DNA of 27,705 bases. Source: Candidatus Micrarchaeota archaeon (GTDB lineage Archaea > B1Sed10-29 > JAJRYS01). Shown here one piece after another: positions 2 through 21,484 of the stretch (positions within the stretch are counted from its first letter, which is position 1; each line of letters begins with the position of its first letter). Position numbers and translations under genes: made by a program. The notes below the pieces were generated by a model, which made no database searches, was not told the DNA's origin, and worked only from the letters and a program-made list of their open reading frames with translations. The stretch is from NCBI GenBank assembly GCA_964496415.1, contig CAZBZN010000003.1, positions 1 to 27,705 on the forward strand, read 5' to 3'.

Positions 2-433
2 TACATAAAAACCAACGGAACCAAAACACCAACCATAACCAAAATAATTGAAAAAACAGGAGACTGCGGTGAAGTGGTTGTTTATTCAAGGTATGGGAAT
101 TCTTCTGCTGACACAGTAATTCCAAGCTCAGGAGTTCCCTTTACTACTAATGATAATCCTCAGGTTTGTTATCTTGGCGCTGGCGAGAACTGTTCAGTTG
201 GGTTTGTTGTTAATGCTACTGACTATGGGGATTACTATGTTGATGTTTTAGCTAATTCTTCTCTTTCTTTTGATGACTCTGTTGACGTGCTTGTAAGGGT
301 TATTTCTGCTGCGTTAAGGGAATGTGATGTGATTTTAAACGATGACTTCACTTCTATTATTACTTATACTATTAAAATCGTTGACAATTACTATGAAAGT
401 ATTACTGCTTCGAAGATGAGTTTATGTTACTAA
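2..433 (+). CDS. C-terminal part of a probable extracellular/surface protein (5' end outside window)
   Basis: The frame of track ORF 74..433 is open back to position 2 (YIKTNGTKTPTITKIIEKTGDCGEVVVYSRY...), so GTG74 is probably internal. Beta-rich, Cys-containing, with N-x-S/T sequons (NGT, NSS, NCS, NAT). Confidence 0.75.
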   Translation, partial: YIKTNGTKTPTITKIIEKTGDCGEVVVYSRYGNSSADTVIPSSGVPFTTNDNPQVCYLGAGENCSVGFVVNATDYGDYYVDVLANSSLSFDDSVDVLVRVISAALRECDVILNDDFTSIITYTIKIVDNYYESITASKMSLCY

Positions 434-747
434 AAGAATATGAAATAGCCGAGGGGGTTTTTGGAAAACTCAGAGGATTAATGTTTAGAAAGAGTTTTGA
501 AAAGCCTTTAGTTTTCAAGCTTAAGAAAAAGACAAGGCTTGGCACAAGCATTCATTCTTTTTTCGTGTTTTTTCCTTTTGACATTGTCTGGCTTGATGAC
601 GGCAAAGTAATTGACTTGTATGAAAATGTGAAGCCTTTTACTTTTAACATTACTCCTAAAAAGCCTGCTGATTGTTTTATTGAATTTCCAGCAGGCTTTA
701 TCAGAAAACATGGGATAAAAGAAGGTTCAATTATAAAACTCGGTTAA
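424..747 (+). CDS. DUF192 family protein
   Basis: Motifs 'KLRGLMFRKS', 'SIHSFFVFFPFDIVWLD' and 'IEFPAG...GIKEG' match the DUF192 pattern. Confidence 0.88.
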   Translation: MLLKEYEIAEGVFGKLRGLMFRKSFEKPLVFKLKKKTRLGTSIHSFFVFFPFDIVWLDDGKVIDLYENVKPFTFNITPKKPADCFIEFPAGFIRKHGIKEGSIIKLG

Positions 748-825: not shown

Positions 826-2514
826 ATGAAAATAGTGTTTGATAAAAGCAAGTGTGTTAAATGCGGGTTGTGTGTCGAGGCTTGTCCTTTAGGAATAGGA
901 GTCTTGGGGTTTGAAGAAGCTTCTAAGGTGTTTAATTGTTTCCAGGAATGCTCTGACTGTCAAGAAGCCTGTAAAGCTAATGCTTTTTATGAAGCTGGGG
1001 GTGTGATTGGAATTGATCCTGAAAAGTGTAATGCCTGTGGAGAATGTGTTAATGCTTGTAAGCTTAACGCGATTGTAATAGTAGATTCAAAAGCAGTAAA
1101 ATGCAACTTATGTGCTGACAGAGAAGAACCTGAATGTGTTAAAGCATGTCCTTATAATGCTTTAAGGCTTGAGCTTTCTGATGAAGAAAAAAGATTAATT
1201 GATGAAGTCATTGGTTGGAGGAAAAAGTTCTTTGACAACGTCATTGAAACAATTGAAGTTAATGAGTTTCATGAAGTTGTCTCTTGTACTGATGGGTTGA
1301 AGTATTTAACTAACTCCACTGACCCTTGTCTTGAAGAAGCATTGGTTTCAAAAGCATTTGCTGAGAACCTTGACCAATATGAGCCTTGTGAAGAGTCTTT
1401 ACTTGAGTTCTTAAAAGCTTACGGAGAAGAAAACAAGGTAAACTATCCTGAAGGAATAATTAGCAGCGTGTTAAGGGAAGCTGTTGGTTTTTCTTTCTTT
1501 GAATTGTTTTTAAAAGACCCTTTGCTTGAAGAAATAGCTTTTAATGGTTGCGGTTCTCCGCTTTTTGTTTATCATGAAAAATACGGATGGCTTGAAACTG
1601 ACGTGAAAGTAACTAACGAGGAAAGAGTAGTTGAATTAGTTAACAAGATGATTAAAAAAACAGGAAGAAGGCTTAATTATGGCAATCCTCTTGTTGACGC
1701 TGAGCTTGGTTTTGGAAGAATAAACGCTGTAATCCCCCCTATTTCAAAGAAAGTGGCTGTCACTATAAGAAAGTTAAAGAAGAATGCTTTTGACTTAAAG
1801 AAGCTCGTGGAGAACAAGACTTTATCAAGTGATGCTGCTGCTTTTCTTAGTTTGTGTGTTGAAATAGGATGCAACATGCTCATATGTGGTAATTCAGGGT
1901 CAGGGAAAACAACTTTGCTTAATGCTTTGCTTGAGTACTCAAAAGACAACGAAAGAATAGTGATAATTGAACAGACTCCTGAAATTAAGATAAACAAAAA
2001 ACACGTAGTAAGTTTAGTAAGTAATGAAAAAACGAGCATGGTGAAGCTTGTTGAAAATACTTTTAGAATGCGTCCTGACAAAGTTGTTGTCGGAGAAATA
2101 AGAACACCAGTAGAAGTAATGGCTTTCATTCAAACAATCCTCTCAGGGCAAGCTAAGTCTTCTTTTGCTACTTTTCACGCTGAGTCTGGTGAAGATGCTG
2201 TGAAAAGACTTAAAAAATATGGAATAAAAGACGAGGATTTAAAATCAATAGATGTAATTGTTGTTCAAAAAAGATGGGAAGAAGCTAATAGTCTAACTGA
2301 TAAAAGAAGAGTGACTGAAGTGCTGTTTAGTGAAGATAATGGTTTCTTGGAAGTATTTGAATATGACATGTATGAAGATTGCTTGGCGCCTAAAAAGCTT
2401 CCTGAAAAGTTCTTGAAAAAAGCTCAATTGTACTTTTCAAAAACAAGAGAGGAAGTTATCAACGAGCTTAAGGTGAGAGCATATGAACTTAGAGAACTTA
2501 GTGAATTCTGTTAG
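826..2514 (+). CDS. Type IV pilus/Tad (CpaF/TadA/VirB11-like) ATPase with fused N-terminal four-cluster 4Fe-4S ferredoxin domain
   Basis: aa10-108 carry 16 Cys in four groups (CVKCGLCVEAC, CFQECSDCQEAC, CNACGECVNAC, CNLC-x7-CVKAC). The C-terminal part has DPLLEEIAFNG, RINAVIPPI, TIRK, Walker A GNSGSGKTT, Asp box IEQTPE, Walker B RPDKVVVGEIR and His box TFHAES. One uninterrupted frame. SD of the next gene overlaps its 3' end. Confidence 0.92.
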   Translation: MKIVFDKSKCVKCGLCVEACPLGIGVLGFEEASKVFNCFQECSDCQEACKANAFYEAGGVIGIDPEKCNACGECVNACKLNAIVIVDSKAVKCNLCADREEPECVKACPYNALRLELSDEEKRLIDEVIGWRKKFFDNVIETIEVNEFHEVVSCTDGLKYLTNSTDPCLEEALVSKAFAENLDQYEPCEESLLEFLKAYGEENKVNYPEGIISSVLREAVGFSFFELFLKDPLLEEIAFNGCGSPLFVYHEKYGWLETDVKVTNEERVVELVNKMIKKTGRRLNYGNPLVDAELGFGRINAVIPPISKKVAVTIRKLKKNAFDLKKLVENKTLSSDAAAFLSLCVEIGCNMLICGNSGSGKTTLLNALLEYSKDNERIVIIEQTPEIKINKKHVVSLVSNEKTSMVKLVENTFRMRPDKVVVGEIRTPVEVMAFIQTILSGQAKSSFATFHAESGEDAVKRLKKYGIKDEDLKSIDVIVVQKRWEEANSLTDKRRVTEVLFSEDNGFLEVFEYDMYEDCLAPKKLPEKFLKKAQLYFSKTREEVINELKVRAYELRELSEFC

Positions 2515-3280
2515 CAGAAGTTTTTCTTTTTTGCCAGTAAATGAAAAAAGAAGTATTGAAATTGACAGACAGCTTCAACAAGCCCTGTTAGAAGTAAATG
2601 GAACTGATTATTACAAGGCCTGCCTTGGACTTTTTCTAATAAGCTTTTTCTTATCCTTAACTCTTATAATAATTTCTATAAGACTAATGCTTGTAGGAGC
2701 AATGGCTTCAGGCATGCTGTTTCTATTACTACTAAAAGCACCAGCCATGATTGCTTCTAGAGTAAAAGAGAAAACAGAAGAAGGCCTTGCTTTGTTTTTG
2801 TATGGAGTAAGTTTTGACTTAAGTTCAGGGCTCACAATTGATGAAGCAGTTAAAAGGAATTCTTTCAATCCTTTTGACAAAGTAATAAAAAAAGCAATAA
2901 GCCGAGCAAATAAAGGAGACTTCTTCCTTAAGGCTTTTTTAGAAGAAGCAAGCGTGTTTTGTTCTAAAAAAGTTGACCATGCAGTTAACTTGCTTTTCAC
3001 GATTGAAAAAAAGGGAATACCATCAGAAGTACTGGCAAAAGCAGGGAAAGAGTTCATGCTTGAACAAAAATTAAAACTCAGGGAAAAGAAAAGCAAATTA
3101 AGTTTATTAGCTTTAGTTTTTGTAGCAGTAGTGGTTGTTGCTCCTGGATTAGTTGAAGGAAGCTTGGTTATTTCAAGCATAATGCTTGGAACTAATAATA
3201 CCTTAACTATCTTTTTGTTAATTGATTTAATAATCCCAGTCATAGGAGTTGGCTTGTTATGGATGATGAAAAACTTATAG
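2483..3280 (+). CDS. TadB/TadC-like (T2SS-F domain) pilus platform membrane protein
   Basis: GGTGA SD at 2472-2476. Directly follows the ATPase. Two N-terminal TM helices, a helical soluble domain ('SSGLTIDEAVK') and two C-terminal TM helices, which is the usual TadC topology. Confidence 0.75.
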   Translation: MNLENLVNSVSRSFSFLPVNEKRSIEIDRQLQQALLEVNGTDYYKACLGLFLISFFLSLTLIIISIRLMLVGAMASGMLFLLLLKAPAMIASRVKEKTEEGLALFLYGVSFDLSSGLTIDEAVKRNSFNPFDKVIKKAISRANKGDFFLKAFLEEASVFCSKKVDHAVNLLFTIEKKGIPSEVLAKAGKEFMLEQKLKLREKKSKLSLLALVFVAVVVVAPGLVEGSLVISSIMLGTNNTLTIFLLIDLIIPVIGVGLLWMMKNL

Positions 3281-3834
3281 AAGCAAAAAGCAGGTTCTTT
3301 TACCAACTATCTTCATTAACTCAAGTAATGGGGGTTGAAGAAGGTTTCAAAGAAGCTGCTTCAAACTCAAGCATCTTGTCTTTAAAAAAATCAAGCATTC
3401 TTGCTGAAAAAGGAACAAGCCTTAAAAAAGCAATAACTAGCATAAATGATAAAAAAATAAAAAGCATTCTTTTAACAGGGATAACATTAAGTGATGAAAA
3501 AGCAGCAGAATTGTTTAAAGCAGCTGCAGAGTATTATTCTATGAAAGCAGAAATAGTAAAAGAAGGAAAATCATTAACTCTTATTCCTTTCCTTACAGTA
3601 AAAGCAGGACTAGTACTTAACCCACTAATACTTGGAATGCTCTTGAAGAGTTTTAAAAGCCTTGAAGTTCTTGCAGGGGATACTTTCTTCAAGTCAATAT
3701 CCTCAGTGAATTATCTTTACTTATGCACTACAGGTCTTCTTTTTTCTTTATTCTTGTCAAAAAAACCAGTAAAATCAATCCTACTAACTGTTCCACTAAG
3801 TACTTTTTTGTTCTGGTTAGTGTCAAGCATATGA
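3259..3834 (+). CDS. Second, divergent TadB/TadC-like membrane protein
   Basis: Overlaps the previous gene. 'GVEEGFKEA...KGTSLKKAI' resembles T2SS-F helices; about three C-terminal hydrophobic segments. Call is largely from context. Confidence 0.55.
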   Translation: MDDEKLIEAKSRFFYQLSSLTQVMGVEEGFKEAASNSSILSLKKSSILAEKGTSLKKAITSINDKKIKSILLTGITLSDEKAAELFKAAAEYYSMKAEIVKEGKSLTLIPFLTVKAGLVLNPLILGMLLKSFKSLEVLAGDTFFKSISSVNYLYLCTTGLLFSLFLSKKPVKSILLTVPLSTFLFWLVSSI

Positions 3835-3842
3835 TTTAAATA
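3835..3842 (+). promoter_or_regulatory. Archaeal TATA box for the PAC2 gene (probably leaderless mRNA)
   Basis: TTTAAATA ends 22 nt before ATG3865 and no SD lies between. Confidence 0.6.
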
Positions 3843-3864
3843 CAGGGTTTGGATTATATCCTTC

Positions 3865-4602
3865 ATGCCAGTTGAAATAAGAATGACTGCTGAAGTAAAC
3901 TTGAAAAACCACGTGTTAATTGAAGGCTTTCCTGGAATAGGGCTTGTTGGAACAATAGCTGCTGGATACATTGCCGAGAAAAGGAAAATGAAGCCAGTTG
4001 GTTTCATTTACTCTGAAAAGTTCCCTCCAATGACTTCCATTCATAATGGTATAGCTTACTATCCTGCAAGGATTTACAAAGACCCAAAATCAGACTTTTT
4101 AGCTGTTTTCTCAGAGTTTGTCATTCCCGGGGATGTTGTATTCGAGCTGTCAAAGGCTATTCTTTCTTTTGCTAAGAAAAAAGGAATACGGGAAATTGTT
4201 TCTCTTGCTGGAATGACTTCAGGAAAGCCAAGTAAAGAAAAAAAGGTTTACGGCATAGCTTCTCAGGAAGGGCTTGTAAAATATCTTGCTTCAAAAGGAA
4301 TTGAAATAGTCAAAGAAGGAGTTACTACAGGAGTGTCAGGAGTTCTGCTTGCTGAATGCAGGGCTGAAAACTTCCCAGCGTTTACATTGCTTGCTGAGTC
4401 AGAATTAAACTACCCTGACCCAAGAGCTTCAGTCCTTTTAGTTAAAAAACTTGAAGAAGTAATAGGGTTAAAAGTTGATGTTAAAGAGTTAATAAAAGAA
4501 GCTGAAATGATTGAAACTAAAATGCGTAAGTTAATGAACCAAATGAAAAAAGGAAAAGCTACTTATAAGAAGGCTGAAGAAAGCCTTCCAATGTACGGGT
4601 GA
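3865..4602 (+). CDS. Proteasome assembly chaperone, PAC2 family (PbaA/PbaB-like), with C-terminal HbYX motif
   Basis: 'LIEGFPGIGLVGTIAAGY', 'GVSGVLL' and 'YPDPRAS' are typical of PAC2. Ends in M-Y-G (HbYX). Confidence 0.93.
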   Translation: MPVEIRMTAEVNLKNHVLIEGFPGIGLVGTIAAGYIAEKRKMKPVGFIYSEKFPPMTSIHNGIAYYPARIYKDPKSDFLAVFSEFVIPGDVVFELSKAILSFAKKKGIREIVSLAGMTSGKPSKEKKVYGIASQEGLVKYLASKGIEIVKEGVTTGVSGVLLAECRAENFPAFTLLAESELNYPDPRASVLLVKKLEEVIGLKVDVKELIKEAEMIETKMRKLMNQMKKGKATYKKAEESLPMYG

Positions 4603-4607
4603 TGTAA

Positions 4608-4985
4608 ATGAAAGAAGTCTACGCATTATGTGCTATAGCGTATGAGGAAATGCTTGACTTAGAAAGGCATGGAACAAAAACTTTTGAATTAGTATGCGCT
4701 GACCACATCAACATTGCTCAGAAACTAAAAAAAGGAGACATGTTATTTGTCTCAAACCTAAGCAAAGCTGACGTTAGGAAAGGAAGTGAAGGGCTAATAG
4801 CAAAAGTAAAGGATGTTAAAATAGACTACTGGAGGACTATTCCAAGAGAGTATGATGAAAAAGAACTCTTGACTACGAGGATCCAATTACAGTTTATTGA
4901 TGAAGCAAGGGTAAGAAAAGCAAAAGACTTAGGCCCTGGGAAAGGCTTAAAAGTAGAATACGAAACTCATGTGCTCTTAGGATAA
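4608..4985 (+). CDS. DUF473 family archaeal protein
   Basis: 'YALCAI...TKTFEL...N...LKKGDMLFV...D...GSEGLIAKV' fits DUF473. Directly downstream of PAC2. Confidence 0.7.
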   Translation: MKEVYALCAIAYEEMLDLERHGTKTFELVCADHINIAQKLKKGDMLFVSNLSKADVRKGSEGLIAKVKDVKIDYWRTIPREYDEKELLTTRIQLQFIDEARVRKAKDLGPGKGLKVEYETHVLLG

Positions 4986-5048: not shown

Positions 5049-5588
5049 ATGGTTAGTCCTAATGATTACTGGAAAATCTTAGCTCCTAGAATAACAGTAC
5101 TAGTCACTACTATGGATTCAAGAGGTAGAGCTGACGTTGCTCCTTTTTCTTTTGTTGCTCCAGTGAGTTTTGACCCTCCGCTTTTAATGCTTGCAGTTGG
5201 AACAAACAAGCATTCTTATTGGAACATCACTCAAAAAAAAGAAATCGTTGTAAATATTCCTACTGAGGAAATGCTTGAAAAACTCTGGGTTGCTGGAGAA
5301 AAATGGGATCCTGAAGTATCAAAAATAGAAAGAGCTGGGCTGAAAACAGAAAAAGCTGAAAAAGTAGGACCTCCTGTGCTTCCTGAGTGCGTTGCAAGTT
5401 TTGAGTGTTATGTTGAAGATGCAAGAAAATACGGCGACCACGTGATAATAATCGCTAAAGTAATAAAAATCCATGTTAAGGAAGAATTTCTTGATGAAGA
5501 AGGAAGACTCAAAGTTGACTTAGTAAGACCCCCTCTTCATGTCGCAGATAACTTGTTCGCCTTTCCATACGTTACTAAAGAAGTTTAA
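5049..5588 (+). CDS. Flavin reductase-like FMN-binding protein (flavoredoxin/MTH152-like)
   Basis: 'PRITVLVTT...VAPFSFVAPVSFDPPLL', 'FECYV...GDHVII' and 'PPLHV'. GGAGG SD at 5036-5040. Confidence 0.92.
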   Translation: MVSPNDYWKILAPRITVLVTTMDSRGRADVAPFSFVAPVSFDPPLLMLAVGTNKHSYWNITQKKEIVVNIPTEEMLEKLWVAGEKWDPEVSKIERAGLKTEKAEKVGPPVLPECVASFECYVEDARKYGDHVIIIAKVIKIHVKEEFLDEEGRLKVDLVRPPLHVADNLFAFPYVTKEV

Positions 5589-6676
5589 GCTTTTACTTCT
5601 TCTGCTTTAACTATGACATCCTTGCCGCAGTGCGGGCACTTGTAAATCACTAAGTCTCCTTCATGCCTTACTTGCAAAGCACAGTTAGAGCAGAAGCCTT
5701 TACCGCAGTAAGGACAGTAAATTATTTGAACGTTCTTAGCACCACAGTTAGGGCACTTTACTTCTTTTTCTTTTGGAACTTCCTCTATCTCAGAAAAACC
5801 AGCAAGAGAAGACAAGTCAATTCCTTCTTCAAGTTCTTCTAACTCTCCTATTTCAGGAGAAGGTTCTATTCCAAGGTCTTCTAAGCTTAAGGTTTCAAGA
5901 GAAGACAAGTCAACAGCTTCACCTAAATCAAGTTCTGGAGCTGTTACTTCAGGAACAGGAGCAGTTGGCTGTGCTGTTATTTCTGTTTTTATCTGTTCAG
6001 TGACCTCATGCTTTCTCTTAGCATACCTTTCCTTATGAGCTTCTAAAAGTTTTGAAACAGAATCAGACAATGCCTTAAAGAACGAGGCTCTCTTTTCCCT
6101 AAGCTCTTTCCTCATTGCTCTTGAAAGCCTTGGTTTTGGCTTTTTCTCAGGCTTTGGTTTTACTTCAACTACTTTAACCTCAGCAGGCTTTTCTTTCTTA
6201 ACTTCTTGAACTGCCTCTTTCTTTATACCCTCAGCAACAGCCTTCTTCTTAACTTTTGCAACAGGTTTTTCCTTTTTAGCAGTTTTTTCCACTCTAACTT
6301 TTTCAGCTTTTTTCTTAAGCTTCTCAGCCACTTTGGTTAACTTTTCTTCTTTCTCAGGCTTTTTTTCTTTAAACCTCACTACTGGAACAGCTACTTTAAC
6401 AGTCTTAGGAGGAGAAACCAAGTTCTTTAATTCAACAAAACCAAAAGAAATCAGAACTATGAACGGCATTATCGCATAAGCAAACATTGGAGTGAGGAAA
6501 AAATAAGAAGGAATTGCTGAAAGAAGAAAAATCATGATTCCAGCAAACCCAGCCAATCCTAGTTTTACTTCTCTTGGAAGAACCCTAATGTCAGGAAAAG
6601 CAAACCGCAGCAACAAGTAACCAAAACTAATGCTTCCAAATAAAGCAAAAACATAACTAACCAGCCAAAAGTCCAT
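5585..6676 (-). CDS. Membrane-anchored protein with Lys-rich and acidic linker and C-terminal 8-Cys zinc finger
   Basis: About three N-terminal TM helices, a K/E/P-rich region, an acidic stretch, then CPNC, CPYC, CSNC and CPHC. G-rich SD at 6681-6685. Stop codon shares TTAA (5585-5588) with the convergent gene. Confidence 0.82.
   Translation of the reverse strand: MDFWLVSYVFALFGSISFGYLLLRFAFPDIRVLPREVKLGLAGFAGIMIFLLSAIPSYFFLTPMFAYAIMPFIVLISFGFVELKNLVSPPKTVKVAVPVVRFKEKKPEKEEKLTKVAEKLKKKAEKVRVEKTAKKEKPVAKVKKKAVAEGIKKEAVQEVKKEKPAEVKVVEVKPKPEKKPKPRLSRAMRKELREKRASFFKALSDSVSKLLEAHKERYAKRKHEVTEQIKTEITAQPTAPVPEVTAPELDLGEAVDLSSLETLSLEDLGIEPSPEIGELEELEEGIDLSSLAGFSEIEEVPKEKEVKCPNCGAKNVQIIYCPYCGKGFCSNCALQVRHEGDLVIYKCPHCGKDVIVKAEEVKA
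5803..5913. repeat. 18-bp perfect direct repeat inside CDS (5803-5820 and 5896-5913)
   Basis: caagagaagacaagtcaa occurs twice, 93 bp apart, and encodes DLSSL on the minus strand. Confidence 0.8.
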
Positions 6677-10800: not shown

Positions 10801-12027
10801 GTGCAGAAAGTGATTAACATAAAACAAAACGATAACGAGATGATGAAGATAAGCAGTGACTGGGTTAGTATTAGTGACTCTTGCTTGCTTTCAAGTATTT
10901 CTGAAGTAACGAAAATCCCAGTAGAACAGTTGAAGGATGTCAGCGTGTTAAGTTCTAAGCTTGGTGACTTTGACGCTGTTTATTCTCCAGAGGCTTTCAT
11001 TTGGATTGAAGGTGGAAAAGTAAACGTGTTGTCTTATGAGGATAAGAAGTGTGAGGGTGGTGACTTCTTAGGAAAAGGAGAAGTATTCAGGTTTGACTCT
11101 GATGAGATTTCGTTCACTCCTAATTCTGAAGGGACTATTAGAATCCTTGACAGTGACGGTAACACTTTGTGTTCTTTCAAGCTTAACTCTGAAGGCAGCG
11201 AAGGGGTGATTAATTTTGAAAACGCCATGCTTAGGAAAGGATTCTACCAGAGCGTTGGAGAGGATGATAACAAGAAGGAAGTTGATTACTCTGATGTTTA
11301 TCACTTGTTCATTTATGACTTGTTAAGCTTCCAGGCAAGTAATCTTGAGTATTTAAGCATTGAAGACATGTGCAGTATTGACCCTGAGACAGGGCAGTTA
11401 AGAGGAGTTAAGCTAATAGGTGGGTTAGGTGGTTATGATTCAGCTTACAGCGACCAATTGTCTTCATTGCTTCAGGATATTTGCTTTAACGAGTTCAAAG
11501 GACTTAACAACGAGCATGTGAGCATTAGGGATGGAAAGCTCTGTGTTGTTGATTCTGAAGGAAACGAAGAATGTTATGACATTGAAGGAGTGAGTGATGG
11601 GAGAATCCAGTTAAGTAATGGCTACAGCATGGGTGCTGGGGTTGACGACTCAGGAATTCCTTACCTGCAGCTTTATGATGCTAACGGCAATCCTTATGGT
11701 GCAAGAATCCCATTACTGTGGGCTACTGGGCTTGGAGGAACAATGATGTACAACCCGAACACTGGAAGTATTAGTATTAAGAACGAGTTCCCGTTCGCCA
11801 TAAACCCGTTGTTCAAGAATTACGGTGCAGGTGGATTAGGCTTGATGACTCCTCAGCTGCCTCCTTGGGGTGGAAGGGCAAAAGAAACAACTGAAGGTGG
11901 AAAGCCTCAGCCAAGCATTATTGCAAGGCTTCCTTGGACTCCTGAAAACAACTTAATGCTTGCAGTGTTCGTTACTATAATCTTAATGTCTGTGTTAATG
12001 ATAAGAAGAAAGGTTAGTAAGAGTTGA
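7819..12027 (+). CDS. Large (1402 aa) secreted/surface protein with internal hydrophobic helices and C-terminal sorting-like signal
   Basis: Signal peptide ending FAYA. Internal G/A-rich hydrophobic segments. Acidic, Cys-containing beta-rich C-terminal half. Ends LPWTPE-NNLMLAVFVTIILMSVLMI-RRKVSKS. Confidence 0.85.
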   Translation: MNKNLKMAYSSIMMLVLLTTVFSPFAYAKHEKASMLTRVNIFAQEAGEEKQECENVWVEELDWKEYQTLLNSTIKRIDAWGNKELGEREKQLEENGLASNPEATNLKDYYIPGVDGRPALLYDVLNKKAVDPNQVCHLSNLVTSSRIAYSTRIKEPIRYCAGQDPACEEKSTASEVEEISDVVNKLSKLHEKAIDGKVEGHWLGWNSLLEAYDKSDLVRQTANELGYSRAQIEEWINNEDSGKIAGVIAEISSYLGSKISAGPQNFAEANEIEFLTNSDAAFLFPGTYLDFINFIRSFKPLDDAILIMTLFDMAIGAAQVANSARTALSKGGMLSKIKNFLRYGRGNGVKIMAEGLDEAKPLWQQTDDLAKSWKDFTKAAEKMGDKVGPNNPKYVNSIDDLIDQVRKMDIGRKEELINALEGLKGDYSKAGEVRNLISQIKEANKPPKAIGDRIREAIRLRRQTITRGVPEKPEVGAGRLRRLGYVVGYGSTVFTNFVRLMFGNAFKGVYGWLLVQYSRVNFFTTASIWLKNKLVSGVFQANIMHLELNTSTKNFAYTHDLQHWLEVRTTVSRPDMAKYYSNLWNLMPFVDIKGTGDKVSNKIKSIQDIVVIYDQDAYAEKNKRPVNVIRVNGREWDFFSSYDDSSVIYNFEHPSGYYGGGLSALAMRIKNVNVGGILAESSSAFSYPLAEKALGAGYWFRGIRNALGVATLLSAAPAGAYVAVNTVSITAGVITEIIVGLLVFEFGGSQKIYDQATASYGYFSNPKEIYSTADPQKICKNIFESEKGSIKRLKWTILAFTTISLGGTLTGFAPAAIIGSIGQMAAMHIESEKEANLANALKNCVETDFEAVLVKNIPSSEEVQETNDELFKPVEDNALKVLDAFSMQGLNDFLKKTASLKVQVLNINGELYDNNTVRVVGREIYNVHFKDGTIKWFQGPDCNIQLCEQEASGAYACFGQNGYFLLDEDGNPLLDGIPQALSMRMNLEEGYDGLVQKVINIKQNDNEMMKISSDWVSISDSCLLSSISEVTKIPVEQLKDVSVLSSKLGDFDAVYSPEAFIWIEGGKVNVLSYEDKKCEGGDFLGKGEVFRFDSDEISFTPNSEGTIRILDSDGNTLCSFKLNSEGSEGVINFENAMLRKGFYQSVGEDDNKKEVDYSDVYHLFIYDLLSFQASNLEYLSIEDMCSIDPETGQLRGVKLIGGLGGYDSAYSDQLSSLLQDICFNEFKGLNNEHVSIRDGKLCVVDSEGNEECYDIEGVSDGRIQLSNGYSMGAGVDDSGIPYLQLYDANGNPYGARIPLLWATGLGGTMMYNPNTGSISIKNEFPFAINPLFKNYGAGGLGLMTPQLPPWGGRAKETTEGGKPQPSIIARLPWTPENNLMLAVFVTIILMSVLMIRRKVSKS

Positions 12028-12523
12028 TTAAAGTTATCTTCCAGGAAGCTGAACTGGTTTTTACTGTAAAGCTTGAAGTAAAAACTGTTTTCCCAGAAAG
12101 ACCAGGTTCTCCTTGCTTGCAGGTTATTTCAGGAGTACCTGGTGAAGGATTCTTGTTTTTGTAACAATAAAAAGAATCACCAGAACTTGAACTGAAAGTA
12201 ATCGTCGAGTTAGGGGAAGGAGAGTTGTCAAAGAAAGCTTTAATTGCTTTTCCTTTTCCTGAAAAATAATAAGCTACTTCATTAACTGGGTCATTTGAAG
12301 ATAGTCTTTCTTTAAGTCCTTGGATGAACCACTCTCCATCCTCATCTTTGATGTTAAAGTAAACAAGCACTGCGGAGCGAAGGTAATCATAATTATACAC
12401 TGCAGTGAACTGCTGGGAAGTATTAGAACCATAAACCTGTGAGATAAAATAAAGCAAAGAAGCACTAGCAGAAGCAATAAACATGAGGAACAACGCGTCA
12501 ACAATTGCTGCTTGAGCTTTCAT
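12014..12523 (-). CDS. Pilin-like protein with class III signal peptide
   Basis: Start moved from 12556 to ATG12523, which has a GGTGA SD upstream. Begins MKA|QAAIVDALFLMFIASASASLLYFI. Confidence 0.82.
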   Translation of the reverse strand: MKAQAAIVDALFLMFIASASASLLYFISQVYGSNTSQQFTAVYNYDYLRSAVLVYFNIKDEDGEWFIQGLKERLSSNDPVNEVAYYFSGKGKAIKAFFDNSPSPNSTITFSSSSGDSFYCYKNKNPSPGTPEITCKQGEPGLSGKTVFTSSFTVKTSSASWKITLINSY

Positions 12524-12533
12524 CTTATTCACC

Positions 12534-12893
12534 TTACTTAACGCACACGTAAGCAACAGCAGGTTGGTTGTTCTTAACCACTAAGTACTTTAGTTTTAAA
12601 ACATAGTCATTACTGCATTCATTGAAAGAAACATCATAACTAACGCCATATGATTTTGCTATTGGGTCTGCTTTCTTTTTCACTGAATTCAAGTCTCCTG
12701 TTATTCCTTCACTCATGAGTATTCTTCCAATGTCAATACCTGCCTTAAGCATTCTAAGAGCTTCTTGCTTTTGACTGTAAACATTGAAAGAGTAAGCAAC
12801 TGCTGAGAAAAACAACACTAATGATAAAACTATTGCTATTATTGAAGGCAAGTCATCGCCAACAGGACCAAGATATGCTTTTAACTTTAACAT
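12534..12893 (-). CDS. Pilin-like protein (atypical class III signal)
   Basis: MLKLKA|YLGPVGDDLPSIIAIVLSLVLFFSAV. Lies within the pilin run. Confidence 0.68.
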   Translation of the reverse strand: MLKLKAYLGPVGDDLPSIIAIVLSLVLFFSAVAYSFNVYSQKQEALRMLKAGIDIGRILMSEGITGDLNSVKKKADPIAKSYGVSYDVSFNECSNDYVLKLKYLVVKNNQPAVAYVCVK

Positions 12894-13375
12894 GCTTTTG
12901 ACTCACACCCCACTATTTCTAACGTGCTTCCTTTTTTTATTACTTTAACGTAATGGATTTTGTCAGAGTAAAAAGAAACCTCGTCACTGCATTGTGCTGC
13001 AGAGTTTTCTTTAAGGCATACTGTCAACCCTTGAGGCACATAAAGTATTGAAGCAGCAGTGTAACCTTTAGGGTTCTCGCCCCAGCCAACAGCAATACTT
13101 AAATAATCACCCGAATGCTGAAAGTAAACAGAATAAGTTCTTCCTCTTTCTTCAGGAATAGTTTTTGAAAGAGGCTTTAAACTAGAGACCTCTAAAGCTC
13201 CTGAAAAAACAGCTGACTGAACATGATCCTTCATTGTCTCAGCAGCAACTGCTGCTGAGTCAGAGTACATTTTTTCCTTAATAAGCAGTGAAAAAGCAGT
13301 AATAGTAGAGAAAGTAATTATTAAGAAGACAAGCATTGACATTTTTGAAAACAACCAAGTTGAAATCCCTTTCAT
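12887..13375 (-). CDS. Pilin-like protein with class III signal peptide
   Basis: MKG|ISTWLFSKMSMLVFLIITFSTITAF. Lies within the pilin run. Confidence 0.72.
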   Translation of the reverse strand: MKGISTWLFSKMSMLVFLIITFSTITAFSLLIKEKMYSDSAAVAAETMKDHVQSAVFSGALEVSSLKPLSKTIPEERGRTYSVYFQHSGDYLSIAVGWGENPKGYTAASILYVPQGLTVCLKENSAAQCSDEVSFYSDKIHYVKVIKKGSTLEIVGCESKAC

Positions 13376-13384
13376 AAAACCAAC

Positions 13385-13936
13385 TCACGGCAGAGTAATA
13401 TCAATCTCATCAGGAGCCTTCTTAGTAATCCTTAAAGAGTAATACTTTTTCTCAAACCAACAATCATCATAACCACTCAATGACTCCCACTCACCATAAT
13501 CAATTGAACTCAAGTCGCAATAACCCGACACCTGATTCCTCACCGTAACATCCCTTGGGATGTTAACTGCTTCAACAACAGCTTGGCCAGTAATCTTTCC
13601 TCCTTCTTCAACAGTAGCAATCACTACCAAACAGTCCTGCCTTCCGAATCTTGCATTGCAAAAATCAGGGCTTCCTTGCAAAATCCTAATATCTTTCACT
13701 TTACTAGTCACCTGTGAAGGTGGGGAAAAGTCAACGTCAACAATCAAGCTGCTTCCAACAGAACCCATGTAAACACTTTCAAGAGTCCTTGCAAGCTTAG
13801 AAATGCTTGCCTTAAGCTTCTGCTCGTACTGAGAAGAAGAAAGATTACTGTAAGCAAGCATTGCAATGACTAACACAAAAGCAAGCATTGTTACTCCAAT
13901 CAAAAGCTCTATAGGAGCTTCTTCCTGACCTTTCAT
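13385..13936 (-). CDS. Pilin-like protein with class III signal peptide
   Basis: MKG|QEEAPIELLIGVTMLAFVLVIAML, then an amphipathic helix and 'VYMGSVGSSLIVDV', as in archaeal minor pilins. Confidence 0.85.
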   Translation of the reverse strand: MKGQEEAPIELLIGVTMLAFVLVIAMLAYSNLSSSQYEQKLKASISKLARTLESVYMGSVGSSLIVDVDFSPPSQVTSKVKDIRILQGSPDFCNARFGRQDCLVVIATVEEGGKITGQAVVEAVNIPRDVTVRNQVSGYCDLSSIDYGEWESLSGYDDCWFEKKYYSLRITKKAPDEIDITLP

Positions 13937-13958
13937 GAATTAAGAAAAACAAACAAAG

Positions 13959-13966
13959 TATTTAAA
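13959..13966 (-). promoter_or_regulatory. Internal TATA box upstream of the 13936 pilin gene
   Basis: TTTAAATA on the minus strand ends 22 nt before ATG13936, the same spacing as at 3835. Confidence 0.55.
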
Positions 13967-13968
13967 GC

Positions 13969-14109
13969 TTAAAACAAAAGCAAAGGCGCTGCGGTCTGAG
14001 CATACTGCGCTGCCTGCTGAAACATCGGCTTTATTATTGCAAACAAAAGAATCGCTGCTATCGCAATTATTATCGCCAAGTATATCGGTGTCCAATTCTG
14101 CGCCTTCAC
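13969..14109 (-). CDS. Very small (46 aa) pilin with class III signal peptide, not in the ORF track
   Basis: Hand translation: GAGGGGG SD, GTG start, MKA|QNWTPIYLAIIIAIAAILLFAIIKPMFQQAAQYAQTAAPLLLF, TAA at 13971-13969. Fills the gap between two pilin genes and has the same MKAQ leader. Confidence 0.85.
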   Translation of the reverse strand: MKAQNWTPIYLAIIIAIAAILLFAIIKPMFQQAAQYAQTAAPLLLF

Positions 14110-14121
14110 AGTATTTCCCCC

Positions 14122-14532
14122 TCAAGGAAGAGTAACGTCTCCTATGCCAATATAACAAGTATCTGTAGTAGCATCACACTTTGTTTTTATCTTTGCTTTG
14201 AAGTTATTTTCAATAGTAACTGTTGTGTCCCCATTAGCGTTACATAGTACTGGTTCACAGTAAAACTCTATGTTAGTTCCAACTCCTCCAACAACATCAG
14301 CAAAAGATTCTCCAGAGTATTCTACTCCTGCCTGGAACTGTGCTTGAGATGTGCTTACGAAAGTAGAACCCTTATATTGGTAAGCTTTTGCAAGCTGATC
14401 TCTTATTATGTTAGTAGGGTCAGCTCCTGGAACAGTTATGCCTCCAAGAATGCTCATAAGTATTCCTAAAATAGCTACTGCCACTACGGCTGCTATCATT
14501 AGTTTGAAAGTGTCAAAAGCTTGGGCTTTCAC
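14122..14532 (-). CDS. Pilin, candidate major pilin
   Basis: GTG start with strong SD GAGGTGG (14545-14539). MKA|QAFDTFKLMIAAVVAVAILGILMSILGG. Has its own upstream TATA. Confidence 0.88.
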   Translation of the reverse strand: MKAQAFDTFKLMIAAVVAVAILGILMSILGGITVPGADPTNIIRDQLAKAYQYKGSTFVSTSQAQFQAGVEYSGESFADVVGGVGTNIEFYCEPVLCNANGDTTVTIENNFKAKIKTKCDATTDTCYIGIGDVTLP

Positions 14533-14571
14533 AGGAAACCACCTCTTTTGATTATGAAAAGAAAGTTTGTT

Positions 14572-14579
14572 TATTTAAA
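14572..14579 (-). promoter_or_regulatory. Internal TATA box upstream of the candidate major pilin
   Basis: aaac-C-TTTAAATA in the 59-bp gap, 39 nt before GTG14532, which leaves room for a short leader with the SD. Confidence 0.6.
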
Positions 14580-14591
14580 GGTTTAGCATGA

Positions 14592-14984
14592 CTAAGAGCA
14601 TGGCTTGTTTAAGTTTATCGTGCAGGAAGTTGTTGTCCCTGTCATTGTGCAGGTAACGCTTACTGGAATGTTTAGCTTCGTTATTGCTTCATATCCTTCA
14701 GTAGTATGCTGGAACCCCCCATTCTCCTTAATCGTGACCGTGACTCCTTCAAGGCTTGCTTCTAGTCCTTGTTCTGATATTATTTCTCCTTGTGAAAAGT
14801 AAACTTTTCTTTCAAAGCATTTTCCAGGCAGGGCTGTTGCTTGAGTAACTAAGTCCCTTACTGATTCAAAACCAGAGTAAGGAGGGTTAATCATTTCAAG
14901 TGCTCCGTAAATGATTACCAGTAATGCTAAGGCAAGTACTGATGCTATGAGCATTTTGAATACTGTGAATGCTTGTGCTTTCAT
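14592..14984 (-). CDS. Pilin, paralog of 14122..14532
   Basis: Start moved to ATG14984 (ATGA overlap with the upstream stop). MKA|QAFTVFKMLIASVLALALLVII. Shares QA...G...F..G and terminal C...C spacing with its neighbour. Confidence 0.85.
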   Translation of the reverse strand: MKAQAFTVFKMLIASVLALALLVIIYGALEMINPPYSGFESVRDLVTQATALPGKCFERKVYFSQGEIISEQGLEASLEGVTVTIKENGGFQHTTEGYEAITKLNIPVSVTCTMTGTTTSCTINLNKPCS

Positions 14985-19235: not shown

Positions 19236-19745
19236 CTTAAATTAAACTTAAGCGAACAAGCCCGCAAAGGGCTTTGGTTTCTAATAGGAATAGCTGGTTT
19301 TTATACTTTGTTCTGGGTGATTTTCAAGCTCGCAGAAGGCATTATAAAAAAATACGTTGCCGTGACTTCTTGGGTTTTACTGTCAATGGTTAAAGTCAAG
19401 GCAGAATTGCTGTTTTCACAAAACCCAGTCATTGCCGTCAGCGGCGTAAATGCTGAGATTAATTCTCTTTGTTCAGGAGTGTTTGAAATAGCTTTGATAA
19501 TGGCAATAGTAATGGCTTCCTGGGACCGTTCCTGGAAACAAAGAATAACAGGAGCACTAGGAGGAGCCTTATTCGTGTTACTAGTCAACCCTCTAAGAAT
19601 AATGATAGTATTAGCTGTAGGACATTACTTATCATGGAAAGCAGCTGACCTCACTCATGACATCCTATTCAGGCTAAGCCTTCTACTAATCATAATCGGC
19701 TACTACTACTGGTGGTATGTTAAAGCCACATGCGAGCAGTCATAA
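19215..19745 (+). CDS. Exosortase/archaeosortase family membrane transpeptidase
   Basis: Cys-Arg-His triad motifs in the expected order (EINSLCSG, VNPLRI, THD) in a small protein with several TM helices. Confidence 0.88.
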   Translation: MSSQTKHLKLNLSEQARKGLWFLIGIAGFYTLFWVIFKLAEGIIKKYVAVTSWVLLSMVKVKAELLFSQNPVIAVSGVNAEINSLCSGVFEIALIMAIVMASWDRSWKQRITGALGGALFVLLVNPLRIMIVLAVGHYLSWKAADLTHDILFRLSLLLIIIGYYYWWYVKATCEQS

Positions 19746-19789
19746 AAAACTTTAAAAACATGACCTGTTTTTCAAATAAAGGGATAAAA

Positions 19790-20893: not shown

Positions 20894-21484
20894 AAATAAA
20901 TTTTTAACAAAGAATAACCCCTTGAAATCTCATATCATTTTTATACTAAAAAAAGCCTTAAAAACACCCGTTGCTTCTTAAAAACCATGAGAAAAGTGTT
21001 CATGTTAATACTAGCTTTAACATTAATCGTAGGTATTGGGTTTTCTTTTTCCTGTGGAAAAGACTCAGGTTCTATAAAAACAGGGGATATTCAACTTCCT
21101 ACTCATGGTGATGAACACCATATGATTCTCCCAGCAAACACAAATCATGTAATTGCAATAAATTATGAAGCCACTGGAAATTTTGAAGAGTACACTTTCA
21201 AAATAACAGATCTTACCACTAACTCAGTAATAAGAACAGAAAAACTCACTAAAGATGATAAAGAGAAACCAAATGCTGGTTTTACTCAAACTTTGCAAAT
21301 AAGGCATAATTACTCCATTTATTTCCATTACACTGATGACGGAGGCTGGTTGGGAAAAGAATTCTCAGGCGAATGCACTGTTTATGTTTACGCTGAAGAC
21401 TCCCCTGAAATTTCTTTCTCTGAGGAATTTCAAGAAACTGATGGTACTTATACTACAAAAATAATAGAAGGGGAACAAATACCA
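20310..21484 (+). repeat. 29-bp identical segment (20310-20338 and 21456-21484) within a longer diverged duplication
   Basis: caaaaataatagaaggggaacaaatacca occurs in both paralogs, and about 300 bp of flanking sequence is alignable by eye. Confidence 0.85.

Follow-up and report, generated by a model that had tools for sequence, protein, structure and literature searches.

The window, a 27,705-nucleotide stretch of contig CAZBZN010000003.1 from Candidatus Micrarchaeota archaeon, carries near its start a gene in which a domain with the sixteen cysteines of a four-cluster ferredoxin is joined, in one reading frame, to a complete assembly ATPase of a type IV filament machine. We know of no type IV filament motor that bears an Fe-S module; motors of this kind are controlled by nucleotides, by phosphorylation and by partner proteins. 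The architecture recurs across a class of DPANN archaea, in which the module is kept, and it is apparently undescribed: a search of titles and abstracts returned no Fe-S domain on a type IV pilus or T2SS ATPase, and the supplements of PMC4858521 and PMC13705601 are places where such an architecture could be listed. The features on which the analysis rests are collected in Table 1.

Table 1. Features of the fused gene and of its neighbours in the window (all on the forward strand).
Feature	Position	Strand	Evidence
Whole gene, 562 aa: four-cluster Fe-S domain and type IV filament assembly ATPase	826..2514	+	ORF, Pfam, AF2, Foldseek
Fe-S domain, aa 1-117, 16 Cys, predicted 4 x [4Fe-4S]	826..1176	+	Fer4 Pfam, AF2, Foldseek
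Cys motif I, C10-x2-C13-x2-C16-x3-C20-P; C10/13/16 predicted to bind cluster A, C20 cluster D	853..885	+	Sequence, correlated loss
Cys motif II, C38-x3-C42-x2-C45-x3-C49; C38/42/45 predicted to bind cluster B, C49 cluster C	937..972	+	Sequence, joint loss
Cys motif III, C68-x2-C71-x2-C74-x3-C78; C68/71/74 predicted to bind cluster C, C78 cluster B	1027..1059	+	Sequence, joint loss
Cys motif IV, C93-x2-C96-x7-C104-x3-C108-P; C93/96/104 predicted to bind cluster D, C108 cluster A	1102..1149	+	Sequence, Cys counts
Linker helix, aa 118-135; conserved E121 and G130-W motif, start point of unfused orthologues	1177..1230	+	AF2 models, alignment
ATPase N-terminal domains, aa 131-334: beta-rich N1, helical region, NTD	1216..1827	+	AF2 secondary structure; alignment to afGspE/FlaI
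Catalytic C-terminal ATPase domain, aa 335-520	1828..2385	+	Pfam T2SSE, invariant alignment columns
DUF192 (COG1430) gene, directly upstream, sole genome copy	424..747	+	Pfam E 1.9e-14
First platform protein, TadB/T2SSF-like, 265 aa	2483..3280	+	PF00482 E 5.2e-7; syntenic T2SSF genes in 14/14 relatives' loci
Second platform protein, TadC-like, 191 aa	3259..3834	+	BLASTP to second T2SSF gene of locus L100
PAC2-family gene, syntenic downstream neighbour	3865..4602	+	Pfam E 1.3e-49; 9/14 relatives' loci
Flavin-reductase-like gene, possible, weakly linked redox neighbour	5049..5588	+	PF01613 E 4.8e-30

The fused gene and its two parts

The ORF is a single intact gene with an ATG start and a stop-free frame. 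A ferredoxin contiguous in frame with a pilus ATPase had been proposed from the letters of the DNA, and the profile searches bear this out, with the Fer4 families and T2SSE all above their Pfam cut-offs and far beyond chance. Residues 2-83 matched Fer4_6 (54.7 bits, cut-off 25), Fer4 (53.6, 21.1), Fer4_7 (45.3, 27), Fer4_10 (36.2, 25.5) and Fer4_9 (34.1, 27); T2SSE (PF00437) scored 116.1 bits over residues 298-485 (cut-off 24.9). The window protein was not listed for PF13247 (Fer4_11) at E ≤ 0.01, and this family is present in the precomputed domains of the homologues P0003, P0005, P0006 and P0008-P0010, and in the split protein of genome G021 (E 8e-9). The AF2 model of the full-length protein had a mean pLDDT of 94.2 and a pTM of 0.83. 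Residues 119-128 form a helix in the AF2 models, and the pLDDT across the linker in the full-length model is 93-97, which suggests that the Fe-S domain is fixed to the ATPase rather than floppy. E121 and G130 are invariant in the alignment of the fused N-domains, the latter still so when unfused sequences are added.

The ATPase part is complete, as the sequence-only reading had it, both in its motifs and in its two-domain NTD and CTD fold. Walker A (G355-T362, nt 1888-1911), the Asp box, Walker B with its catalytic Glu and the His box are all conserved in an alignment of 60 sequences, in which G355, S359-T362, E382, E386, R414, P417, D418, E424, R426 and H451 are invariant or nearly so; R414-D418 lie within the catalytic domain. 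With the full model, Foldseek returned archaeal GspE (2oap, E 6e-34), FlaI (4ihq/4ii7, 1e-31) and CpaF (8rjf, 4e-29), the matches to the CpaF/afGspE/FlaI group spanning E 6e-34 to 1e-27. Residues ~190-551 align to 2oap (E 2e-37), CpaF 8rkd (1.6e-35) and FlaI 4ii7 (1.9e-32). The scores against the TadA/CpaF equivalog TIGR03819 (166.1 bits) and the FlaI equivalog NF058587 (164.5 bits) are below the respective NCBIfam cut-offs of 373.15 and 550, and by these profiles the protein is related to both without being an equivalog of either. It shares the motor fold and motifs with CpaF/TadA of the bacterial Tad pilus, afGspE and FlaI/ArlI, and TadB/TadC-like genes lie adjacent. The solved CpaF, afGspE and FlaI, in contrast, have no Fe-S domain, and the extra ~117 residues here are N-terminal to all aligned parts. 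By analogy with its homologues the protein would form a hexamer, with up to 24 clusters.

The 16 cysteines lie exactly where they had first been read (motifs I-IV, Table 1). The AF2 model of the Fe-S domain alone had a pLDDT of 90, and its top Foldseek matches were HycB3 (7qv7_A), WOR5-B (6x6u_B), AOR (9mqx), PsrB (2vpw_B), HycB (7z0s_B) and FdnH (1kqf_B). There were 16 matches at E ≤ 1e-3, the top 11 all four-cluster electron-transfer subunits, with a TM by query of 0.61-0.69 and E of 5e-7 to 1e-5 against those subunits. Searched as a single sequence, the N-domain had only one near-length match; a profile search found 1162 proteins, essentially CooF/HycB-like, with a fragment of a fused protein (P0273) as the top match. 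The closest free-standing relatives are annotated as the electron carriers CooF, HycB and DmsB. The assignment of this part to the CooF/HycB/FdnH/DmsB kind is thus supported by its fold and by the loss of cysteines in whole clusters, described below, and there is good support for an origin of the N-terminal add-on, ~117 residues long, among the four-[4Fe-4S] electron-transfer proteins of the CooF/HycB family. The four Cys motifs, the fold and the predicted nested ligands are those of CooF, HycB, HycB3/4, FdnH, PsrB/DmsB and the small subunits of WOR5 and AOR. Unlike those subunits, which have about 150-290 residues, the domain has 117, forms one polypeptide with a P-loop motor and adjoins no catalytic redox subunit; it also falls below the equivalog cut-offs for FDH-beta (43 bits vs 335) and DmsB (32 vs 214).

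Cysteine conservation and occurrence of the fusion

In known four-cluster proteins the fourth cysteine of each motif serves another cluster, and the correlated loss of cysteines among the homologues matches this topology. All 16 are kept in 38 of 54 non-fragment sequences. When the 16 sequences with incomplete cysteines were grouped by the nested sets A {10, 13, 16, 108}, B {38, 42, 45, 78}, C {68, 71, 74, 49} and D {93, 96, 104, 20}, 39 sets were full, 14 fully absent and 11 mixed; grouping the same sequences by sequence motif gave 25 full, none fully absent and 39 mixed. The losses of whole sets agree with nesting and not with a sequential arrangement; on this indirect, evolutionary evidence the division of the cysteines into these four predicted ligand sets is well supported, and together they would bind four [4Fe-4S] clusters. 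C38/42/45 are lost jointly with C78 in G006, G012, G014, G015 and P0129, and C68/71/74 jointly with C49 in P0022 and P0211. Set D is nearly always kept (C93 in 58, C96 in 57, C104 in 59 and C20 in 54 of the 60 alignment rows), which makes cluster D the most conserved of the four. Across 22 relatives the N-domain is 33-50% identical to that of the window protein, vs 33-43% over the full length; it is conserved at least as well as the whole protein.

Of 30 genomes in the same class (Iainarchaeota/Diapherotrites), 22 carry the full-length fusion, at 35-44% identity. The fusion is also present in 27 of the best 150 clusters at 50% identity, and in an ESM Atlas cluster of 184 members T2SSE is on 100% and Fer4 on 83%. 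Two of the findings that, by the sequence-only reading, would count against it can be checked computationally: confinement of the fusion to one assembly, and a junction without read support. The first is answered by this recurrence. As for the second, contigs from runs X1 and X2 cover the junction, and a 264-bp contig from a separate study (X4) spans positions 1128-1391 with zero differences. A chimera of ferredoxin and ATPase genes, produced by misassembly, a missed stop or a frameshift, could be suspected in a metagenome assembly of 41 contigs, the more so as the two parts are separate ORFs in G021; against the recurrence, the bridging contigs and the stop-free frame its probability is negligible, and we regard an artefact as refuted for practical purposes.

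The exceptions to the fusion take two forms. In G021 a 124-aa Fer4 ORF, 72% identical to the N-domain of the fused P0005, ends in a stop that overlaps the ATPase start as ATGA, and by this overlap the Fer4 gene is translationally coupled to the ATPase gene. Unfused orthologues in loci L008 and L112 have the same DUF192-ATPase-TadB-TadC-PAC2 synteny; a separate Fer4 ORF was sought in the 428-bp gap of L008 and none was found. A contig search by ATPase motifs only, which gave the unfused L008, had no fused form among the matches listed (80 loci). Since unfused orthologues occupy the same synteny, the Fe-S module is accessory and not core.

The filament locus and its genome

Two platform-like genes follow the ATPase, as the sequence-only reading had noted, the second identified by transitive homology: it had no Pfam match even at E ≤ 5, and it matches the second T2SSF-positive gene of the L100 locus (BLASTP E 8e-11, 28% identity). 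A pair of T2SSF genes adjoins the ATPase in 8 of 14 relatives' loci. The DUF192 gene lies upstream of the ATPase in 9 of the 14, and also in L008; a literature search on DUF192 gave nothing relevant. The flavin-reductase-like gene is three genes downstream, a position that it holds in only two of the 14 loci (L102, L110). No conserved redox enzyme was found among the 14 loci, and no catalytic redox subunit at the locus of the window. Pilin-like K/R-G-Q N-termini are encoded upstream in L101, L110 and L113, and the window's own contig begins just upstream; the genome has two Peptidase_A24 genes. In PMC13705601, 'system 1' (Epd-like) of the archaeal type IV filaments (T4F) is defined by one ATPase and two platform-protein genes, which is the gene content found here. 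It is well supported that the product of the fused gene is the cytoplasmic ATPase that drives assembly of an archaeal type IV filament, the machine being Epd/Tad-like and, by its gene content, probably of 'system 1'.

The genome, 0.69 Mb and 91% complete, is small, and its relatives carry the names Diapherotrites and Iainarchaeota, which fits a DPANN archaeon. Candidate redox suppliers are a 2-oxoacid:ferredoxin oxidoreductase (POR_N, TPP and Fer4 domains) and two small ferredoxins of 59 aa each, one single-cluster and one dicluster. SufBD is encoded, as is ABCE1, whose twin ABC ATPases carry Fer4_RLI and Fer4 domains.

Possible roles of the Fe-S module

We tentatively read the Fe-S module as a domain through which redox state, oxygen or the ferredoxin pool acts on the motor, an interpretation that could well be wrong. 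It would sit as an accessory input domain where sister motors bear regulatory or adaptor domains. FHA plus T2SSE architectures are among the matches (P0029, P0057, P0099, P0105), and the FHA domain of actinobacterial CpaF is likewise an accessory N-terminal input domain on the same ATPase family; the MshEN c-di-GMP domains sit N-terminally on MshE/PilB. Unlike the module here, those domains respond to phosphothreonine or to a nucleotide second messenger and bind no metal cluster. PMC13705601 describes subsystem-specific N-terminal extensions on archaeal T4F ATPases and proposes them as interaction interfaces for accessory proteins. We lean to an input role because such N-terminal domains and extensions occur on relatives, because selection retains the clusters in the majority of sequences, because a supply of redox partners is encoded in the genome and because the full-length model suggests a fixed attachment.

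In such a scheme, the low-potential clusters would equilibrate with the cell's pool of reduced ferredoxin, and both oxygen and a shortage of Fe-S would damage them. A change in their redox state or intactness, with cluster D mattering most, could alter the packing of the module on the N-terminal domains, and the altered packing would allow or prevent activity of the hexamer or its coupling to the platform. Filament assembly would then be confined to cells in a reduced, anoxic state with Fe-S in good supply. We propose by analogy both that the clusters exchange electrons with ferredoxin and that their state affects ATPase activity. The input reading is weakened because the known Fe-S sensors (FNR, SoxR, NsrR and WhiB) have a single cluster each and no four-cluster chain, and because the nearest free-standing relatives of the module are annotated as electron carriers. 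There are losses of whole clusters and, in some lineages, of the entire domain from loci that are otherwise retained, and gating, if any, is therefore non-essential.

The clusters might instead hold together a compact docking or mechanical domain, with no redox readout. ABCE1, which acts in ribosome recycling, has an Fe-S domain that is mechanical rather than redox-active, and ABCE1/Rli1 resembles the fused protein in having an N-terminal ferredoxin-like [4Fe-4S] domain on an ATPase; it has two clusters rather than four, its ATPase is of another superfamily, and the kinship of the Fe-S parts is only that of the Fer4 superfamily. A partner for such a domain could be a platform loop, DUF192, PAC2 or another protein, and any sensitivity to oxygen or iron would be a side effect. 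The occurrence of ABCE1 in the same genome, the rigid, high-confidence AF2 model and the proposed interface role of the T4F extensions (PMC13705601) are all in keeping with this explanation, and the loss of cluster B with retention of C in G006, G012, G014 and G015 fits local structural staples better. Yet four low-potential clusters are an expensive scaffold, the source family's free-standing members are annotated as electron carriers, and most sequences keep all 16 ligands. No partner confined to the fused form was found either, since DUF192, T2SSF and PAC2 are in unfused loci too. We consider a structural or adaptor role somewhat unlikely.

A role in electron transfer, in which up to 24 clusters would form a conduit or ring leading from cytoplasmic ferredoxin to a membrane or machine-associated acceptor, appears improbable. 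Variants would couple ATP hydrolysis to electron transfer or, in the extreme form, deliver electrons to the filament or a host cell. The fold and relatives of the module are those of electron wires (HycB3 of the hydrogen-dependent CO2 reductase, AOR, WOR5, FdnH, PsrB, CooF/HycB), most sequences have the complete four-cluster chain, and the flavin-reductase-like gene could be a redox neighbour in the window and in the two relatives' loci that share it. An acceptor is not evident, however: the window's platform proteins have two and one Cys and no cofactor motif, and the locus is without a conserved redox enzyme. On these same observations, the suggestion of the sequence-only reading that electrons might move toward a surface structure is unsupported. 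We know of no route from the cytoplasmic ATPase through the platform to the pilins, and with neither acceptor nor route we set aside electrons reaching the filament. Moreover, we take the order of the cluster chain to be A-D-B-C, from the sequence topology and the arrangement in FdnH, and on this presumed order one lineage is without the presumed middle cluster and keeps the distal one. The losses of the whole domain with retention of the locus also weigh against a conduit.

A possible parallel comes from Sulfolobus, for which PMC11178785, PMC11178815 and PMC13705601 report that AapX, an Fe-S oxidoreductase-like protein, is needed for assembly of the Aap pilus in a role that is unknown, and that its deletion abolishes pili; this requirement would favour electron transfer. 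Homologues of AapX bear an FAD-binding domain (PMC11178815). As described there, AapX shares with the fused domain its Fe-S character and a genetic link to the ATPase and platform pair of an archaeal type IV pilus. The likeness is by description only, and AapX, unlike the fused domain, is a separate, membrane-anchored protein of another pilus subsystem, in the Thermoproteota.

The boldest form of these ideas, which we regard as a long shot, is a ring or spokes of up to 24 clusters, set at the foot of the filament machine, that exchanges electrons with the ferredoxin pool and a machine-associated acceptor and so couples assembly to electron flow. If true, the motor would have a redox clutch or would carry out ATP-assisted electron transfer; this would explain why the unrelated Aap pilus needs AapX, and archaeal pilus motors would generally take redox input.

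The fusion is compact, at 562 aa, and the relatives with three clusters, with two, with a split module or with no such domain make up a ready-made mutant series, in which the split and lost variants are natural controls. It raises the question of how N-terminal add-ons control this motor family, and of whether archaeal pilus assembly involves Fe-S proteins more generally, a possibility hinted at by the requirement for AapX. For these archaea, whose filaments are probably a means of attachment, it raises the further question of whether the surface filaments of such tiny anaerobes depend on the redox state or on oxygen.

A four-cluster ferredoxin domain on a filament ATPase

The fused gene has an ATG start and a frame that stays open throughout. 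The 16 cysteines that the sequence-only reading had placed in the first 113 residues were recovered at exactly those positions in the translated ORF, in four groups (motifs I to IV: CxxCxxCxxxCP, Cx3CxxCx3C, CxxCxxCxxxC and CxxCx7Cx3CP). The proposed union of ferredoxin and motor in one ORF was borne out by the profile scan, in which both parts exceeded their Pfam cut-offs: several Fer4 families at aa 2-83, and T2SSE at aa 298-485 (116 bits vs 24.9). Sub-threshold NCBIfam matches were to FDH-beta, DmsB and NrfC (aa ~40-129) and, partially, to TadA, FlaI, VirB11 and TrbB (aa ~211-560). Compared by sequence with solved structures, aa 190-551 matched archaeal GspE (2oap, E 2e-37), CpaF (1.6e-35) and FlaI (1.9e-32), aa 9-90 the polyferredoxin MvhB (5e-13), and aa 41-127 FdnH (4e-7). 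The catalytic residues of the ATPase are invariant or nearly so across 60 sequences.

The AlphaFold2 model of the N-domain (23-sequence alignment) had a mean pLDDT of 90, and its best PDB matches by Foldseek were all four-cluster ferredoxin-like subunits, out of 16 matches at E<=1e-3. The first, with E 4.8e-7 and a query TM of 0.68, was HycB3 (7qv7_A) of the hydrogen-dependent CO2 reductase; other top matches were the WOR5 small subunit, AOR subunits, PsrB, HycB of formate hydrogenlyase and FdnH. For the whole protein, the model (alignment of 60 sequences; mean pLDDT 94.2, pTM 0.83; linker 93-97) resembled afGspE, FlaI and CpaF by Foldseek. The protein is shown to be a motor of the pilus type on which the four-cluster module is an accessory.

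Features of the fused protein and of the window
Feature	Position	Strand	Basis or remark
Fused gene, 562 aa	826-2514	+	ORF
Fe-S domain	aa 1-117	+	full-length model
Helix	aa 119-128	+	full-length model
Small beta domain	aa 131-162	+	full-length model
Helices	aa 169-229	+	full-length model
NTD	aa 234-330	+	full-length model
Catalytic CTD	aa 335-520	+	full-length model
C-terminal helices	after CTD	+	full-length model
Truncated ORF	2-433		
DUF192 (COG1430)	424-747		
First platform gene, T2SSF-like	2483-3280	+	Pfam
Second platform gene	3259-3834	+	BLASTP E 8e-11 to the homologous second T2SSF gene at a relative's locus
PAC2	3865-4602		
DUF473	4608-4985		
Protein, 363 aa	5585-6676	-	N-terminal membrane helices, long Lys/Glu-rich low-complexity middle
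ORF, 1402 aa	7819-12027	+	signal-peptide-like N-terminus
Second filament locus	12014-19235	-	
Small genes (at least four), pilin-like N-termini M-K-[AG]-Q then hydrophobic stretch	12014-12556, 13385-13936, 14122-14532, 14592-15014	-	
ORF, 682 aa, no family	14981-17029	-	second filament locus
T2SSE ATPase, 760 aa, long Cys-containing N-terminal extension	16953-19235	-	Pfam E 2.8e-20
ORF, 176 aa	19215-19745	+	weak exosortase/archaeosortase (PF09721) match, E 2.3e-6
Secreted-protein gene, >1584 aa	22953-27704		CarboxypepD_reg domain

A search with the window protein returned 1942 proteins at E<=0.001; among the best 120, Fer4 and T2SSE occurred together on 10, the window's own and 9 others at 35-43% identity. 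The architecture is not unique to this assembly, as matches beginning at query residue <=8 and extending past residue 500 were found in 22 of the 30 same-class genomes (Iainarchaeota/Diapherotrites). Two more (G001, G016) had matches cut by contig ends, G028 carried a reduced form with motifs III and IV only, G021 held the Fe-S part and the ATPase apart, and four (G005, G011, G017, G030) had matches that all lacked the Fe-S part; the completeness of G005, G017 and G030 is 61-78%. Among the matches listed for 10 more distant archaeal genomes, none began before residue 159. When 1.84 billion cluster representatives were searched with a profile, 27 of the best 150 matches began at profile position <=20. 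An ESM Atlas cluster of 184 members, mostly Candidatus Iainarchaeota, carried T2SSE on 100% and Fer4 on 83%. The junction is spanned by Logan contigs of two hydrothermal-vent runs, possibly the source runs, and by a 264-bp Logan contig that belongs to a different study and covers 1128-1391 with no difference. With the fusion common among relatives and the junction bridged, it is next to impossible that the fused ORF is an artefact, and this explanation is excluded for practical purposes.

Cysteine loss and cluster topology

We aligned 60 distinct fused sequences, after removal of 5 duplicates; six rows that are fragments or are truncated at the N-terminus (G028, P0177, P0157, P0154, P0197, P0188) were left out of the counts of intact sets. 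All 16 cysteines, whose conservation the sequence-only reading had made a test of its proposal, are kept in 38 of the remaining 54; the 16 others lose them as sets. Set {10,13,16,108} (A) is lost in P0009, P0010, P0152, P0129, P0022, P0211 and P0230, set {38,42,45,78} (B) in G006, G012, G014, G015 and P0129, and set {68,71,74,49} (C) in P0022 and P0211. Set {93,96,104,20} (D) is kept almost everywhere, with cysteine at C93, C96, C104 and C20 in 58, 57, 59 and 54 of the 60 rows. In the 16 incomplete sequences, this nested grouping gave 39 full, 14 absent and 11 mixed sets, and grouping by sequence motif 25, 0 and 39. The 16 sequences overstate independence, because the losses amount to about five separate events on the ATPase tree; counts among the relatives are phylogenetically non-independent.

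The pattern is nonetheless predicted by the nested ligand topology of CooF/FdnH-type proteins, a topology consistent with the fold matches. The putative clusters are under selection as units. From the sequence topology and the arrangement in FdnH, the clusters would lie in the spatial order A-D-B-C, and a central position of D would suit a cluster that is never dropped.

Gene neighbourhood and history of the fusion

We surveyed 88 neighbouring genes at 14 relatives' loci by Pfam scan. The two platform-like genes that had been noted after the ATPase both stood, the first by Pfam and the second, in which the Pfam scan found no family match, through its homology to a gene of a relative's locus. 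T2SSF adjoins the ATPase at all 14 loci (two T2SSF genes in 8), DUF192 lies immediately upstream in 9, PAC2 downstream in 9, and DUF473 and a flavin-reductase-like gene occur in 2 each; the window holds all of these. Its DUF192 gene, a single genomic copy, directly precedes the ATPase, and PAC2 and DUF473 follow the platform genes. The recurrence of the uncharacterised DUF192, PAC2 and DUF473 near fused and unfused ATPases alike (L100-L117, L008) suggests that they may be part of, or co-regulated with, the filament machine. According to PMC13705601, archaeal 'system 1' (Epd-like), the presumed origin of the bacterial Tad pilus, is marked by a single ATPase accompanied by two platform genes. 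Pilin-like N-termini (K/R-G-Q, then a hydrophobic stretch) occur upstream at L101, L110 and L113; the window's contig begins just upstream of the locus and does not hold this region.

Large lectin-like surface proteins (Laminin_G_3, DUF2341, F5/8 type C) are encoded just before the DUF192-ATPase locus in L106, L108 and L117, and the truncated ORF opening the window may be the last part of a similar gene. Relatives also have small mobile or addiction modules within or next to the conserved locus: HicB/HicA between DUF192 and the ATPase (L102 of G019, 3504-3945), a PIN/MazE-like pair upstream (L104 of G023, 5869-6624) and a TnpB/Cas12f-like ORF beside the platform genes (L103 of G014, 920-2161).

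The window also holds a second, separate type IV filament locus, whose 760-aa ATPase has a 665-aa paralogue on contig C28 with CxxC pairs near its N-terminus. The 176-aa ORF adjoins large secreted-protein genes (19730-20893, 20987-22033 and the one in the table). The 363-aa protein has two C-terminal zinc-ribbon-like CxxC pairs (weak Pfam Zn_ribbon_3 and HVO_2753_ZBP matches), and the 1402-aa ORF matched no Pfam family.

On a 985-kb contig of another archaeon (L008), the order DUF192-ATPase-TadB-TadC-PAC2 is the same, the ATPase is unfused (470 aa), and no Fer4 ORF was found in the 428-bp gap. In G021 (L113, - strand), a Fer4 ORF of 124 aa (3343-3717), 72% identical to the N-domain of the fused P0005, ends in ...ILGWVKTK, and its stop codon TGA shares bases with the start ATG of the ATPase (2078-3361) as ATGA; the public gene call P0141 begins at this ATG. 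Either the gene has truly split, with translation of the two parts coupled, or one base is wrong in the assembly; another unfused sequence, P0011, clusters with it in the tree. Split genes or truncated gene calls may account for some of the public proteins classed as 'unfused'. A quick maximum-likelihood tree built from the ATPase portion (Fe-S columns cut off, five fragments dropped beforehand, 90 of 91 rows used, rooted on three paralogues of the same genome) placed the fused forms basally with unfused ones nested among them, and parsimony needed 15 changes, at least four forced by well-supported branches. Support along the backbone is weak and the rooting depends on paralogues, so that a fusion present in the ancestor and lost repeatedly is likely rather than proven.

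Function and precedent

In relatives the genes of the machine stay in place even where the module is separate, shortened or missing, which speaks for an add-on rather than a mechanical part of the core. Cluster binding, gating and all functions considered here are inferred. The genome (0.69 Mb, 41 contigs, 91% complete) encodes one SufBD, two ferredoxins of 59 aa and an enzyme of the 2-oxoacid:ferredoxin oxidoreductase type that bears a Fer4 tail of its own, which makes Fe-S assembly and a pool of low-potential ferredoxin plausible in this cell; a 113-aa dicluster protein and ABCE1 are also present. It has two class III signal peptidase candidates and seven T2SSE-family ATPases, with ferredoxin motifs only on the fused one. 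For a cell this small, seven is an unusually large commitment to motors for filaments or secretion.

FHA fusions occur among the matches to the window protein, and c-di-GMP-binding MshEN domains exemplify N-terminal input. A 2026 census describes subsystem-specific N-terminal extensions of T4F ATPases and proposes them as interfaces (PMC13705601). The N-terminus of this family is an attachment point for inputs and adaptors, and for this reason we favour, at somewhat below an even chance, a module that would sense redox, oxygen or Fe-S status and then license filament assembly. The main rival, a purely structural or adaptor Fe-S domain like that of ABCE1, is rather unlikely. The electron path of FdnH, the filament-forming HycB and single-cluster sensors offer further comparisons. 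A true electron conduit or ATP-coupled electron transfer would suit the family from which the Fe-S domain comes, but no acceptor is visible and one lineage has lost the presumed middle cluster, making this quite improbable.

By its description, the nearest biological precedent is AapX. According to PMC11178785 and PMC11178815, the gene for this membrane-anchored, Fe-S oxidoreductase-like protein of Sulfolobus acidocaldarius neighbours that for the Aap pilus ATPase, and pili are lost when it is deleted, although what the protein does there is unexplained. No description of the architecture was found in the literature searched, supplements aside: the main text of PMC4858521 (Makarova et al. 2016) lacks the terms ferredoxin, Fe-S, iron-sulfur and 4Fe-4S, the available text of Sivabalasarma and Albers 2026 (PMC13705601) reports no evidence that ATPases have split or fused and does not mention ferredoxin, a search pairing 'T2SSE' with 'Fer4' gave no paper, and broader searches gave no relevant title or abstract. 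The family itself is already in databases under automatic names ('4Fe-4S ferredoxin-type domain-containing protein' for the 184-member cluster; only 'ATPase, T2SS/T4P/T4SS family [Candidatus Diapherotrites archaeon]' for two public records). The novelty therefore lies in the recognition and interpretation of a variant of a known machine.
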